Source of the DNA: a virus
Lineage: Duplodnaviria; Heunggongvirae; Uroviricota; Caudoviricetes
Length of the DNA stretch: 7,848 nucleotides
Strand: one strand, 5' to 3'
Virus record (IMG/VR): IMGVR_UViG_2778261058_000010
Location: 1-7,848 of that record
The notes under the pieces were generated by a model, which was not told the DNA's origin, ran no database searches, and worked only from the letters and a program-made list of their open reading frames with translations. Position numbers and translations under genes: made by a program. Below, piece by piece: positions 1,036-7,581 of this stretch (position 1 is the stretch's first letter; the number at the start of each line of letters is the position of its first letter).

Positions 1036-1224
1036 ATGGTTATGAACAGAAGACACTGGACACACAGAATGCCGCGAACGGCGGCGAAATGGGCACCGGT
1101 AGCGATACTGGTGCCTTTTTTCCTGGTGGGATGCGTCAGCCTGGATAAAGCGCGCCAGCTTTTCGATACAGCTTCTCAGGTCTGCGAAATTGTCGACGGT
1201 GTTCGGCAGTGTCTGCAGAACTGA
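1036..1224 (+). CDS. putative small lipoprotein
   Basis: ORF 1036..1224. Internal Met at 1069 begins a textbook lipoprotein signal: MPRTAAK, hydrophobic core WAPVAILVPFF, lipobox LVGC. The mature part is only about 29 aa and is not proline-rich. Start could be 1036, 1042 or 1069. Confidence 0.45.
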   Translation: MVMNRRHWTHRMPRTAAKWAPVAILVPFFLVGCVSLDKARQLFDTASQVCEIVDGVRQCLQN

Positions 1225-1244
1225 TCGCCTGTAAGAGCAGAATA

Positions 1245-1292
1245 TTTTGCTGAAAAATGAAGGATACGCCAGCGTCCGGAAAGCATGAAATT
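1245..1292. repeat. copy A of a 48-bp imperfect direct repeat (partner at 6420-6467)
   Basis: 1273-1292 (cgtccggaaagcatgaaatt) is identical to 6448-6467. The flanks gccagc and t.tgct.aaaaatga are also shared, with 2 mismatches and 1 indel. Lies in the intergenic region upstream of the 98-aa gene. Confidence 0.7.
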
Positions 1293-1398
1293 CTGTGTTT
1301 GTGGCTACTCAATAAAATAAATTCTTTCTGTCGCCGCGAATACTCAAATGTTGATCAGTGCCCGGTGCGGCGACGGGCTTCGATATCAGGAGACGATG

Positions 1399-1756: not shown

Positions 1757-2107
1757 ATGCCATCACGAATACCCCGCGCCTGTCGTAAGCGTGGATGTGC
1801 AGGCACAACAACAGACAGTTCGGGTTACTGCGATAAGCATCGCGGTGAAGGCTGGGTGCAGCACCAGCGCGGACTGAGCCGCCACCAGCGTGGCTATGGC
1901 TCAAAATGGACGGTGATTCGTGCCCGTATTCTGAAGCGCGATAAAGGTCTGTGTCAGTTGTGTCTGCGTGTCGGTGTGGTGAGCGAGGCGAAAACCGTCG
2001 ACCACATCATCCCGAAAGCGCATGGCGGAACAGACGCAGACAGCAACCTGCAGAGTCTGTGCTGGCCCTGCCATAAAGCGAAAACAGCGCGCGAACGAAT
2101 CAGGTGA
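1757..2107 (+). CDS. HNH endonuclease, phage packaging-associated
   Basis: ATG at 1757 within ORF 1682..2107, preceded by AAGGAG (1744-1749). Cys pairs (CRKRGC; CWPCH) and an HNH-like core (VDHIIPKAHGG...N) are present. It sits directly upstream of the terminase small and large subunit genes, as in HK97-like cos phages. Confidence 0.85.
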   Translation: MPSRIPRACRKRGCAGTTTDSSGYCDKHRGEGWVQHQRGLSRHQRGYGSKWTVIRARILKRDKGLCQLCLRVGVVSEAKTVDHIIPKAHGGTDADSNLQSLCWPCHKAKTARERIR

Positions 2108-2737: not shown

Positions 2738-3930
2738 TGGCAAAAGTGGCTGACGGGATCCGCTACGCCGAACGTGTTGTTGCAGGAGAAATTGTCGCTG
2801 GCGAATTTGTCCGTCTGGCCTGCCAGCGTTTTCTTGATGATCTGAAGTACGGCGAAGAGCGGGGGATTTATTTCAGTGAACCCCGTGCGCAGCACATCCT
2901 GAATTTCTACAAATTTGTGCCCCATGTAAAAGGGGCGCTGGCAGGTCAGCCCATTGAACTGATGGACTGGCATGTTTTTATCCTCATTAATATTTTTGGT
3001 TTTGTCATTCCGCTGGTGAATGAAGAGACCGGGGAAGTTGTCATGCGCAGCGATGGCAGCGGACGCCCGGTGATGGTGCGCCGGTTCCGGACAGCGTACA
3101 ACGAAGTCGCCCGTAAAAACGCAAAATCAACCCTGTCATCGGGTATCGGTCTGTATATGACGGGGGCAGATGGTGAAGGCGGGGCTGAGGTGTATTCAGC
3201 CGCAACCACGCGTGACCAGGCCAGAATTGTGTTTGAAGACGCCAAAAATATGGTCAGAAAAGCCCGGTCGACACTCGGGCGATTGTTTGATTTCAACAAG
3301 CTGGCGATTTACCAGGAGCAGAGCGCATCAAAATTTGAACCGCTTTCCTCGGATGCAAACAACCTGGACGGTCTGAACATCCACTGCGCCATTATTGATG
3401 AGCTGCATGCACATAAAACCCGCGACGTGTGGGACGTTCTGGAAACGGCAACCGGTGCCCGTCTGCAGTCCCTGTTATTTGGTATCACCACGGCGGGCTT
3501 TAACAAGGAAGGGATTTGTTACGAGCAACGCGATTACGCCATCAAGGTATTGCGAGGCTATAACAGTGACGTGGAGGGCGCGGTAAAAGACGACTCCTAC
3601 TTTGCGATTATTTACACGCTCGATGAGGGAGATGATCCGTTTGATGAAACGGTCTGGCAGAAAGCGAATCCCGGCCTGGGCATCTGTAAACGCTGGGATG
3701 ATCTGCGTCGTCTGGCGAAAAAAGCGAAGGAGCAGGTTTCAGCACGGGTGAATTTTTTCACGAAGAAAGTAACATCACGCCGTAACAACAGTGCGACCTG
3801 TCCTGATTTTTTTAGTAACCAAATGAAAGAAAAAGATTTTTTCTTGTTCGTCGTTTTTGTTTTTTCTGGAAGGTTCTGGCTGTTTTCATCATTTGTGTAT
3901 TGCACTGTGTATTGCAAAAACGGGTTATAA
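2737..3930 (+). CDS. terminase large subunit (Terminase_1-like), C-terminally truncated, probable pseudogene
   Basis: ORF 2737..3930. Deviant Walker A (ARKNAKST), Walker B (IIDELH) and the W.KANPGLG motif are present. After NFFTKK (codon 344, about 3768) the translation becomes low-complexity and Phe-rich (VTSRRNNSATCPDFF...FLFVVFVF) and the DNA becomes AT-rich. The expected nuclease domain, roughly 200 aa, is missing. Confidence 0.75.
   Translation: MAKVADGIRYAERVVAGEIVAGEFVRLACQRFLDDLKYGEERGIYFSEPRAQHILNFYKFVPHVKGALAGQPIELMDWHVFILINIFGFVIPLVNEETGEVVMRSDGSGRPVMVRRFRTAYNEVARKNAKSTLSSGIGLYMTGADGEGGAEVYSAATTRDQARIVFEDAKNMVRKARSTLGRLFDFNKLAIYQEQSASKFEPLSSDANNLDGLNIHCAIIDELHAHKTRDVWDVLETATGARLQSLLFGITTAGFNKEGICYEQRDYAIKVLRGYNSDVEGAVKDDSYFAIIYTLDEGDDPFDETVWQKANPGLGICKRWDDLRRLAKKAKEQVSARVNFFTKKVTSRRNNSATCPDFFSNQMKEKDFFLFVVFVFSGRFWLFSSFVYCTVYCKNGL
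3894..3916. repeat. tandem 11-bp direct repeat upstream of the integrase
   Basis: tgtgtattgca at 3894-3904 and again at 3906-3916, separated by one base; ends 20 bp before the int ATG. Confidence 0.6.
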
Positions 3931-5757: not shown

Positions 5758-6351
5758 ATGAATAAAAATATTGCCGCGACGGGCAAGGGTGACGCACGTC
5801 ATGTGAAAAAATTCTGTGATATTCGTGATCTGGTCGTTCTGCGCTTTGATAGTGTGAACGTTCGCGTGGTGTATCTGAACGGCGATCCGTGGTTTGTTGG
5901 CGCTGATGTGTGTGCGGCGCTGGAAATTAGCAACGTTACCGATGCTGTTTCAGTTCTGGATAGCGATGAGGTAATGACCCTAGCTTTAACCGAGGGTCAT
6001 TCAGGTAAGCGTGGTGGTGCCAGAAGTTGGAATGTTGTATCAGAATCAGGTTTTTACAAGTTGATCGCCAGAAGTCGCAAAGCTGTTAATCCTGGCACGT
6101 TCGCCCATCGTTTCAGTAATTGGGTATTCAGAAATGTGATACCGGGTATCAGAAAAACGGGGGCTTATGGTATCCCGTGGGGCGCATTACAGGATTTTTC
6201 CCGCCGCAAAGAGCAATACCAGATAAGTGCCAGTGAGAAGGGGAGGGCGCTACAGGCATGTAAGCGCAAAAAGCGTGAACTGGAGGAAGAAGAAAAAAGG
6301 CTGATACGTGAATATCAGCCTGAGTTTTACTTTGGTGAGCGTATTCAGTAA
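5758..6351 (+). CDS. Bro-N domain protein, putative antirepressor
   Basis: ORF 5755..6351 (GTG 5755 / ATG 5758; GAGG at 5745-5748). N-terminal segment VVYLNGDPWFVGADVCAALEISN is Bro-N-like; the C-terminus is basic/acidic and coiled-coil-like. Confidence 0.75.
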   Translation: MNKNIAATGKGDARHVKKFCDIRDLVVLRFDSVNVRVVYLNGDPWFVGADVCAALEISNVTDAVSVLDSDEVMTLALTEGHSGKRGGARSWNVVSESGFYKLIARSRKAVNPGTFAHRFSNWVFRNVIPGIRKTGAYGIPWGALQDFSRRKEQYQISASEKGRALQACKRKKRELEEEEKRLIREYQPEFYFGERIQ

Positions 6352-6419
6352 CCGCGTACGGTGCTGATTATACGGTACATCGTGTTAACCGGGAAGTTAC
6401 CCACCAGCAAGGCAAAATC

Positions 6420-6467
6420 TTCTGCTAAAAAATGACATATGGCCAGCCGTCCGGAAAGCATGAAATT
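6420..6467. repeat. copy B of the 48-bp imperfect direct repeat (partner at 1245-1292)
   Basis: See copy A. The 20-bp exact core is at 6448-6467. Lies in the convergent intergenic region after the Bro-N gene. Confidence 0.7.
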
Positions 6468-6509
6468 TTACAAAAATGGAAAATGAAGATTTTTATTGTG
6501 CTGGTGGGT

Positions 6510-6540
6510 AAAAACAAAAAGCGCCCCGTTGCCGGAGCGC
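6510..6540 (-). terminator. Rho-independent terminator (minus strand)
   Basis: On the minus strand: stem gcgctccg / cggggcgc (one G-U pair) with a GCAA tetraloop (plus 6521-6540), followed by TTTTTGTTTTT (plus 6510-6520). Confidence 0.6.
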
Positions 6541-6634
6541 TCTTGCGAACAATTAACCTACTGCGCAAAAAATGAATCTGTGCGGGGGGATTATATCAAC
6601 CGTGGTCGAAATGACCATAGTTGCAGGATAACAG

Positions 6635-6664
6635 GCAAAACAAAGGCCACCCGCTACGGTGGCC
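6635..6664 (-). terminator. Rho-independent terminator (minus strand)
   Basis: On the minus strand: stem ggccacc / ggtggcc (plus 6645-6664) followed by TTTGTTTTG (plus 6635-6643). About 130 nt downstream of the 50-aa gene stop. Confidence 0.55.
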
Positions 6665-6794
6665 CCTTGACACAAGCTACACGTTATCCCCAACGCATGA
6701 GCATAGCCAACAATGCCACATTTACGGCTGGTGGGCAAATCCTGAGCTGTTCTGTAATTACAGGAACTACGGCATTGTCGCGGTTAGGTTATGC

Positions 6795-6947
6795 TCAACT
6801 TTTTTTCAACTCTATATCGCAAGCACGCCGTAATATATCGCCTTCATTGCTTCCGCAAAGATTCTTTTTCTCGAAGCATGATTTTAAGATAAAGGCGGCG
6901 ACAATTAGAACAATCGCACAGAGTGCACAATTTTTAAGTTTTGGCAT
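6795..6947 (-). CDS. small membrane peptide (50 aa), single transmembrane segment, Cys-rich; not in ORF track
   Basis: Hand-translated from the minus strand: ATG (plus 6945-6947) is 6 nt after AGGAG (plus 6954-6958). Product MPKLKNCALCAIVLIVAAFILKSCFEKKNLCGSNEGDILRRACDIELKKS; stop TGA (plus 6795-6797). Second gene of the minus-strand pair. Confidence 0.4.
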   Translation of the reverse strand: MPKLKNCALCAIVLIVAAFILKSCFEKKNLCGSNEGDILRRACDIELKKS

Positions 6948-7001
6948 CTTTTACTCCTATGGTTGCCGCCGTGATTCCTCACACCACGGCGCTGATAGTA
7001 A

Positions 7002-7181
7002 TTATTCTGATTCTTTGGCCTTGCGGCGCTGGCGGCGTTTGATCTCGCCACGCATGGCTGTAACGATAAACTGCGCGTCTGTTTCGTTTTCCTCTTTGAC
7101 AAAATTCATTTCGCTTAAAACTTCTAGAGGGATTCTAGCCGTTTTTTGTTGTGATTTGTTGTTGGTTGTACCCGTTGGCAT
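7002..7181 (-). CDS. small putative DNA-binding protein (59 aa), possibly ribbon-helix-helix-like
   Basis: Internal ATG of ORF 7002..7349 (plus 7179-7181) is preceded by a perfect AAGGAGG (plus 7189-7195) with a 6-nt spacer. Product MPTGTTNNKSQQKTARIPLEVLSEMNFVKEENETDAQFIVTAMRGEIKRRQRRKAKESE. The strand/helix-like pattern and basic tail suggest a small regulator; fold assignment is inference. Confidence 0.5.
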   Translation of the reverse strand: MPTGTTNNKSQQKTARIPLEVLSEMNFVKEENETDAQFIVTAMRGEIKRRQRRKAKESE

Positions 7182-7247
7182 TACTGGCCTCCTTACTGTT
7201 AGGTGGCGTTCAGTATACGTAGAAAAAAAAATAAAAAAAGGCTTGAA

Positions 7248-7293
7248 GTGCAAGTCACCTAAAAGTAGCATAACCCTCAAAGGTGACTTGCAC
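7248..7293 (+). promoter_or_regulatory. 13-bp perfect inverted repeat with 20-nt loop; candidate operator or structured leader RNA
   Basis: gtgcaagtcacct (7248-7260) is the exact reverse complement of aggtgacttgcac (7281-7293). Preceded by A9-T-A7 (7222-7238) and followed by a second imperfect hairpin (7305-7337). Sits between the divergent minus-strand pair and the Icd-like gene. Confidence 0.4.
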
Positions 7294-7374
7294 CTTAAAG
7301 ACAAAGCCCCGCAAGTGTCGTTACCACTCGCAGGGCTTCTAACCACCAACGATAACGAGAGTATCGAGGTAGCT

Positions 7375-7581
7375 ATGAGAAATCATACCACACACCCGCA
7401 AGGGCGGGACTCGCACAACCTGAATAAATATATCTGGCGTTTTATCGCTCTGAGCACGGCACAACCGCGCGTGATTACCATTGAGGCCACCAGCGAACAG
7501 GAAGCACGCCAGCAATCTCCTGATGGCTGTGTGATGGTATTCGCCGCCCGTATTCGCCAGGGGGTGCACCATGTGCAATAA
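7375..7581 (+). CDS. Icd-like (host cell division inhibitor-like) small protein
   Basis: ATG at 7375 inside the spurious long ORF 6496..7581; GAGG at 7366-7369 with a 5-nt spacer. The 68-aa product (MRNHTTHPQGR...VITIEATSEQEARQQSPDGCVMVFAARIRQ) resembles Icd-like proteins of P4-like elements as I remember them. Confidence 0.5.
   Translation: MRNHTTHPQGRDSHNLNKYIWRFIALSTAQPRVITIEATSEQEARQQSPDGCVMVFAARIRQGVHHVQ

Follow-up and report, generated by a model that had tools for sequence, protein, structure and literature searches.

A conserved intergenic hairpin element of putative function in phage late operons and capsid-forming PICIs of Escherichia coli

The RNase III hairpins of T7 early mRNA (R0.3, R1.1) and the sib/tI retroregulator of lambda act in cis on mRNA ends and stability. 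The REP/BIME sequences of E. coli are thought to protect the upstream mRNA. In lambdoid phages, conserved boundary ("linker") sequences lie at mosaic joints (Juhala et al. 2000, cited in PMC4104026). Prophage late regions also encode Hfq-bound small RNAs, among them AsxR/AgvB (PMC4104026), HnrS (10.1101/2025.11.27.690950) and Pas (PMC8550237).

The element described here resembles each of these and, judged by its sequence, is a member of neither the T7 hairpins, lambda sib, REP nor the lambdoid boundary sequences. It is best regarded as a conserved intergenic hairpin/boundary element of phage late operons with a putative function. Like the T7 and lambda structures it is an irregular hairpin of ~60 nt, in which an internal loop separates the lower from the upper stem, located between or after the cistrons of long phage transcripts. 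However, the sequences are unrelated, the helix of the element is short (16-17 bp) with large A-rich loops, and its strand preference is split. With REP/BIME it shares the form of a short, presumably transcribed, imperfect palindrome, a 3'-UTR or intercistronic position and a multicopy nature, but it is found only in prophage late regions and in satellites, each locus has a single copy whose orientation does not vary, and its invariant boxes are A-rich and enclose a variable centre. As with the linkers, a short conserved sequence is found exactly where modules change, and its flanks assort independently; in addition, the orientation and length of the element are constant and its hairpin covaries, all of which suggests a function over and above homology. 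The late-region small RNAs (AsxR/AgvB, StxS, HnrS, PasA-D) are likewise non-coding, located in lambdoid late regions and multicopy across prophages, and HnrS lies between lysis and terminase genes. These RNAs have their own start sites, intrinsic terminators and Hfq binding, whereas the element has no promoter, plus-strand terminator, listed Hfq peak or sequence similarity to them.

The window, which is the whole stretch of 7,848 nt analysed here, joins a phiP27-like prophage to a satellite. Positions 1-2176 are 97.4% identical to phage phiP27 and cover the holin end, an M15 endolysin, small ORFs, an HNH gene and the annotated cos. The terS and terL genes come after cos, and similarity to the intact terL of phage records stops at ~3764. 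The DNA past this point is a capsid-forming PICI (cf-PICI) of ~15.3 kb inserted within the prophage terL, whose N-terminal part ends at ~3765. Its genes in the window encode an integrase, two AlpA-like HTH proteins and a BRO-N domain protein (5758..6351, plus strand). In locus L002, which contains the full cf-PICI, there follow a DUF927 primase, SSB, PerC, major capsid protein, prohead protease, portal, connector, HNH, terS and terL, and then a C-terminal fragment of the prophage terL. The cf-PICI is bordered on both sides by a 21-bp direct repeat, GTGTATTGCACTGTGTATTGC, found at 3895-3915 of the window and again 15,264 bp downstream (18501-18521 and 33765-33785 in L002). The same terL-inserted arrangement is present in E. 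coli 042 and many other genomes. The cf-PICI also carries a gene of the YlcI/YnfO family (window 7002-7181, minus strand; L296 6806-7000, minus strand; L223 4757-4990). Elsewhere this family adjoins the cos/terS of lambdoid prophages, for example E2348/69 PP2 and K-12 Qin, so the BRO-N-to-YlcI segment of the satellite looks syntenic with the Rz-to-terS segment of such phages.

An earlier note, made from the letters of the window, had reported an exact 20-bp repeat shared by the prophage and the satellite, and recomputation agrees. The sequence CGTCCGGAAAGCATGAAATT is present at 1273-1292 (copy A) and 6448-6467 (copy B), both on the plus strand, and the window holds no further match with up to 2 mismatches allowed. 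That this exceeds chance, as the note had held, was borne out by dinucleotide shuffles, 0 of 200 of which contained any match. The similarity, put at about 48 bp, is real but slightly longer. Ungapped extension aligns 1237-1292 with 6412-6467 (56 nt, 77% identity), and a profile of 96 family members delimits copy A at 1236-1297 (E = 4.6e-19) and copy B at 6411-6471 (E = 6.4e-14), which gives a span of 56-62 nt; beyond these borders the two loci are dissimilar. The flank "gccagc", described as conserved, is offset by one base between the copies, so their middle parts are only loosely alike.

Both copies occupy the gene positions that had been claimed for them. Copy A lies upstream of the genes for the 98-aa protein, HNH, terS and terL. 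It begins 12 nt past the stop codon of a small lipoprotein ORF with the lipobox LVGC (1036..1224, plus strand) and ~100 nt ahead of the 98-aa ORF, and its locus is 100% identical to the phiP27 copy at 20862-20982. PGAP annotates a 51-aa version of the lipoprotein in L002, again ending 12 nt ahead of the element; the ORF has no match in Pfam. Within its signal-peptide part there is a terminator-like hairpin with an 11-bp stem and a T-run (1091-1116). Copy B follows the BRO-N gene, beginning 60 nt past its stop at 6351, and is enclosed by a long inverted repeat (6397..6511; fold z -3.2 on the plus and -5.1 on the minus strand). The outer arms of this repeat are perfect over 13 bp (6397-6409 and 6499-6511), each holding one Chi octamer in opposite orientations, and the inner arms lie at 6415-6423 and 6484-6492. 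Chi octamers (GCTGGTGG) are abundant overall, with 5 in the 7.8-kb window against 0.33 expected; 4 of them are within the cf-PICI (6401-6408 minus, 6500-6507 plus, 6727-6734 plus, 7487-7494 minus) and one is at 1882-1889 (minus). Beside copy B, and outside the repeat, there are a minus-strand promoter-like site (TGGTCA-16-TATAAT with TG, 6617-6590) and a strong minus-strand terminator-like hairpin (6544-6517). Together (6515-6617) they predict an RNA of ~65-70 nt, which recalls HnrS (66 nt) by position; the two sequences are dissimilar.

Copies A and B are independent members of a widespread non-coding element of ~60 bp, and their repeat is no private link between prophage and satellite. A 69-nt form of the element matches 1,702 of 5,426 complete E. 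coli genomes (~31%) at 2,217 places, with up to 9 per genome, as well as 13 plasmid records. Copy A as the query matches 201 phage records, and in IMG/VR each of two anchor patterns is found at no fewer than 119 loci. The earlier note had listed membership in a widespread unrelated repeat family, such as REP/ERIC or an IS end, as an outcome that would speak against it. The family is indeed widespread, but it is phage-specific and is neither of these. All loci examined individually are prophage late regions or cf-PICIs, which does not fit a REP/ERIC chromosomal repeat, and among the matches listed in the search that gave 1,702 genomes the copies adjoin lysozyme genes or sit in unannotated intergenic DNA. 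An IS end or MITE-like insertion was rejected as well: no transposase is adjacent, no border duplication is visible and no empty site was seen, since the element is present in all 135 loci that share this lysozyme 3' end. K-12 Qin and E2348/69 PP2 were found to contain no family member. The family is apparently undescribed, and a literature search by sequence string found, among the papers covered, none that prints the element sequence. Among GTDB species representatives the exact left-box 20-mer has 15 matches, (L207-L221), and the sole isolate is Citrobacter braakii; the other matches are in MAGs of unrelated phyla, labeled as cyanobacteria, Bacteroidota, archaea and others, and are probably E. 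coli phage contamination.

Four types can be distinguished. T1 is located directly at the stop codon of the lysozyme R gene in Stx-converting and related lambdoid phages (for example Sakai Sp5, Sakai Sp10, P13374 and GER2), and a strong intrinsic terminator comes 30-70 nt on, followed by ant or Rz. T2, to which copy A belongs, is found after the lipoprotein gene in phiP27-like late regions, and the 3' end of this gene precedes every T2 element. T3 is the cf-PICI form and includes copy B; it is conserved at 94-99% in 52 E. coli genomes. T4 occurs in a different temperate, podovirus-like phage, after a RecA-dependent nuclease gene and before HTH and T7-type portal genes. In every instance read, the element has the orientation of the upstream or flanking late genes, and in the instances read it starts 0-60 nt past a stop codon.

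The layout is common to the family: a near-invariant left box of 25 nt, a GC-rich variable hairpin and a conserved right box. In copy A (1236..1297, plus strand), as delimited by the 20-mer, the extension and the profile, the left box is at 1237-1260 (GCAGAATATTTTGCTGAAAAATGA), the variable hairpin consists of GGATAC (1262-1267), a loop (1268-1271) and GCGTCC (1272-1277), and the right box is at 1278-1295 (GGAAAGCATGAAATTCTG). Copy B (6411..6471, plus strand), resting on the same three lines of evidence, has its left box at 6412-6435 (GCAAAATCTTCTGCTAAAAAATGA), its variable centre at 6436-6452 and its right box at 6453-6470. In T1 and T2 the left box, AGCAGAATATTTTGCTGAAAAATGA, hardly varies, the centre is ~18 nt long and GC-rich, and the consensus of the right box is GGA(A/T)A(G/A)CA(T/C)GAAAT(T/C)CTG. 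The 20-mer shared by the two copies is simply the common form of the right box, carried by T2, T3 and T4. Length is identical in 96 of 102 unique sequences and fixed within 1 nt. The boxes are invariant or nearly so while the adjoining coding and non-coding DNA varies. As the search patterns fixed about half of the box positions, this conservation rests on the free positions and on the lysozyme-anchored set, both of which show comparable conservation apart from a few variants. Where cf-PICIs differ, despite ~98% identity elsewhere over 380 nt, their substitutions are concentrated in the centre.

Small ORFs on both strands were rejected because of stop codons and missing starts. In T1, the plus-strand frame that begins at the left-box ATG runs for 8 codons before a stop. 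On the minus strand, the frame RISC[FY]P has an in-frame TAA in the common Sakai-type variant, and in T2b it has no start codon. In the same minus-strand frame (window 1278-1295; T1 loci such as L222 9543-9605), four of the differences between T1 and T2 look synonymous, as they change third positions; three of them fall in the right box and the fourth in the centre (RISCFPDA against RISCYPSA). These may hint at an old coding origin.

The two boxes form an imperfect inverted repeat (CAGAATATTTTGCT against AGCATGAAATTCTG) that gives a closing stem and a middle stem, and the centre forms an apical stem of 4-6 bp. In an alignment of 71 distinct sequences, 85.3% of the cells are paired, compared to 27-47% when each partner is shifted by 1-3 columns, and covariation scores 0.169 versus 0.048-0.076 in these slid controls. 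As the sequences fall into only four main lineages, their relatedness inflates the covariation counts. None of 500 shuffles reached the observed pairing and covariation. Four pairs change on both sides, for example from G-C to A-U at 9/62 between the phage and cf-PICI types; at pair 32/45 the both-side change is from G-C to U-A. RNAalifold found no consensus structure on the plus strand across all types and, on the minus strand, no more than a weak lower stem (-4.1 kcal/mol). Copy A folds no better than shuffles (z = -0.92), and copy B beats them solely on account of the extra long inverted repeat that surrounds it.

The strand signal is divided. Closing and middle stems pair better on the minus strand (0.95 and 1.00, versus 0.885 and 0.88 on the plus), but the apical stem pairs better on the plus strand (0.79 versus 0.62). 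Lower-stem mismatches that are A.C on the plus strand are G.U on the minus, and the U.G of the apical stem on the plus strand is C.A on the minus. The pairing statistics support formation of a hairpin by the element, with a split strand preference. Its 25 contiguous invariant bases exceed what a plain stabiliser hairpin should need.

The better pairing of the lower stems on the minus strand would suit an intrinsic terminator of that strand, in which a GC-rich hairpin followed by UCAUUUUUC shields the upstream late gene from antisense transcription out of downstream minus-strand morons. The variable hairpin is indeed followed directly by TCATTTTTCAGC on the minus strand, and in the cf-PICI the DNA immediately upstream in this direction holds minus-strand genes and two terminators of the same strand. 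However, an intrinsic terminator scan flagged neither copy on either strand. The T-run is present on the minus strand, but the stem has a systematic C.A mismatch: pair 34/43 is C.A in 62 of 96 sequences and paired in only 3 of 96. The stems are also short (4-6 bp), and no minus-strand gene that would need terminating lies close to T1 or T2 copies, all of which makes a minus-strand terminator extremely unlikely. On the plus strand, a T-run after the element hairpin is absent.

In the set of 135 lysozyme R 3' ends, T1 is always fused to the R stop codon, and the flanks of T2 fall into 2 clusters on the left and 7 on the right; the element therefore follows the upstream gene. In E. coli 042, a prophage with the same HNH-terS-terL type has only 42 nt between the lysis gene and HNH, which leaves no room for the element, and so the element is dispensable for the downstream packaging operon. 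A T3 copy is nevertheless present in this genome, within the same cf-PICI, and the genome yielded no second member of the family. Among the matches listed, the same holds for 8 of 11 genomes with copy B. No third copy was found ahead of the PICI capsid and packaging genes in L002. These observations argue against both a late promoter and a helper-satellite signal, and favour a 3' module of the upstream cistron.

Conserved boxes at a fixed spacing around a variable centre are also what a two-box protein-binding DNA site would look like, either an activator-dependent rightward late promoter or an operator for a phage or host factor, with the centre as a spacer of fixed length. T2 and T4 copies are located upstream of packaging or structural genes, and a weak -10-like AATTCT after TG is present at the right end of T2-T4. 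The earlier note had suggested a shared late-promoter or activator site, and a late promoter of the packaging operon did not hold up. A sigma-70 promoter scan (-35/-10 with 16-18 bp spacing) found 0 sites in 900-1800, and in 6200-7400 its sole site was the minus-strand one at 6617-6590 outside the element, so no sigma-70-type site passes at either copy. The TG and -10-like bases are altered in T1, the commonest type, and the element tracks the upstream and not the downstream gene. The same packaging operon occurs without it, the capsid and packaging genes of the cf-PICI are preceded by no copy, and the cf-PICI copy points into convergent minus-strand genes. A spacer would have no need of the hairpin potential that the centre keeps. 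A DNA site of this kind is considered unlikely.

The suggestion that a phage late-region sequence is also carried by the satellite is supported, but the specific readings given to it fail. A packaging-recognition site can be dismissed, as the cos of the phiP27/HK97 type is located between HNH and terS and maps to ~2169-2178, ~900 bp from the element at 1236-1297. The repeats are not att-like either: the cf-PICI is flanked by the different 21-bp repeat given above, and copy A is 2.6 kb outside the island while copy B is inside. Coupling of satellite to helper fared no better. Here the cf-PICI copy would sense or mimic the helper: a factor belonging to the late programme of the phage would recognise it, and the satellite would thereby keep step with late expression of its helper. 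In favour of this, the cf-PICI copy shows strong conservation (52 genomes, 17 sequence variants), it shares an identical right box with the phiP27-type, T2 and T4 phages, and the satellite in the window sits inside a prophage that bears a copy. Yet the 042 cf-PICI is in a prophage with no room for the element, other members are unseen in most genomes with copy B (the 8 of 11 among the matches listed), and no copy lies ahead of the PICI packaging operon. Moreover, the family is common in phages of unrelated morphogenesis types, and no candidate recognising factor is common to all contexts. Such a signal is very improbable. A broader idea is that in this element the late transcripts of phages carry a signal of a new class, recognised by a dedicated factor, with the variable apical stem as the specificity determinant, and that cf-PICIs captured a copy between inverted Chi sites, tying their regulation to the helper late programme; this is regarded as speculative and quite improbable. 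On this idea, candidate roles would be an RNA site for processing or of the antitermination type, or a decoy that engages a host nuclease or a defence system.

A recombination site, another suggestion of the earlier note, is retained as a rival explanation only. The boxes may have no biochemical role and persist as "linkers" because homologous recombination there yields viable hybrids, in which case late-region modules that can be exchanged would have their borders at the boxes. Four unrelated upstream genes are each followed by a homologous element, and T2 has 7 right flanks to 2 left ones. There are hybrid types, such as L118 with a T1-like centre and a T2 right box. Phage GER2 (L004) has two members, a T1 after R (777-838) and a decayed T2 before terS (2514-2571). 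In L021 (~2692-2737) the middle of the lipoprotein gene has become fused to the right box by a deletion at the octamer GCGCCAGC, which is common to the gene and the element centre. The G.U pattern, too, prefers neither strand clearly. However, the orientation is constant and the length fixed within 1 nt, the centre retains pairing potential with both-side changes, and the boxes exceed the adjacent coding sequence in conservation. Recombination alone also leaves a variable centre between homogenised arms unexplained. As the whole explanation of the element, this is judged rather unlikely.

Another possibility considered was that cleavage of the late transcript releases a regulatory RNA acting in trans, or a decoy, whose boxes pair with a host or phage RNA. 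Long contiguous invariance suits base pairing. As the T1 terminator is 30-70 nt downstream, a 3'-UTR RNA of ~130 nt could be released, and Hfq-bound small RNAs are known from prophage late regions (AsxR/AgvB, HnrS, Pas). On the other hand, T2, T3 and T4 copies are not followed by a terminator, and the EcOnc data list no Hfq peak near the Sakai copies in Sp5 (1273543-1273700) and Sp10 (1945285-1945420); these data come from uninduced Sakai cultures, in which late operons are mostly silent. A search of Rfam 15, with C4/IsrK, AsxR, AgvB and STnc100 included, found nothing on the element in the window at E <=1. Its only match was a sub-threshold terminator at 6514-6568, off the element, and the loci holding T1 and T4 copies likewise gave nothing on the element. 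There is no identified target. Spot 42 has a hairpin loop that resembles the left-box loop GAAUAUUUU, part of the RyhB seed resembles the right box, and lambda Rz contains GCTGAAAATGA; all three matches we take to be short enough for chance. A trans-acting RNA is judged distinctly unlikely.

None of the late-region small RNAs compared appears to correspond to the element. AsxR and AgvB sit 3' of stx2B. HnrS is encoded on the minus strand of Sp10, in the interval from Rz to terS, and is related neither to the element nor to the putative cf-PICI small RNA. The element is absent from the part of the PasA sequence that is in print, and no copy is present in E2348/69 PP2. Sakai coordinates and gene names gave no match in the supplements of PMC5286369.

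Our best guess, made with low confidence, is that the element acts as structured RNA in the 3'-UTR of late transcripts or between their cistrons, with arms that double as mosaic joints. It would be a portable module placed directly 3' of a gene and transcribed in the sense direction within the message of that gene, the upstream genes seen being the Stx-phage lysozyme R, the phiP27 lipoprotein, the cf-PICI BRO-N and the podovirus-like RecA-dependent nuclease genes. The two conserved boxes would pair and close an irregular hairpin, and the GC-rich apical stem would be free to vary provided that pairing holds. Such a structure may protect the mRNA end of the upstream cistron, or it may be a processing site for an endonuclease of the RNase E/III type. 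The AU-rich loop of the left box (AAUAUUUU) would fit a candidate RNase E site. As a by-product, the invariant arms would serve as exchange points of late-region modules. The anatomy, distribution, upstream linkage and pairing statistics were observed directly, and cos, att, promoter, plus-strand terminator, ORF and known RNA families were excluded; beyond this we infer action as an RNA, from the plus strand, with an effect on mRNA processing or stability.

For the window, the repeat alone indicates neither a helper-satellite relationship nor a packaging site nor an att site. If functional, the element would be among the commonest uncharacterised non-coding features of E. coli prophages, found in ~31% of complete genomes. 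Its presence in capsid-forming PICIs means that satellites draw on the same pool of late-region sequences. In Stx-converting phages it directly follows the endolysin gene, in the operon that controls toxin release and lysis, and a family this common merits a direct test in an Stx phage. A defined cis element in this place, if true, would bear on the processing of late messages and on the swapping of late-region modules, including morons such as ant.
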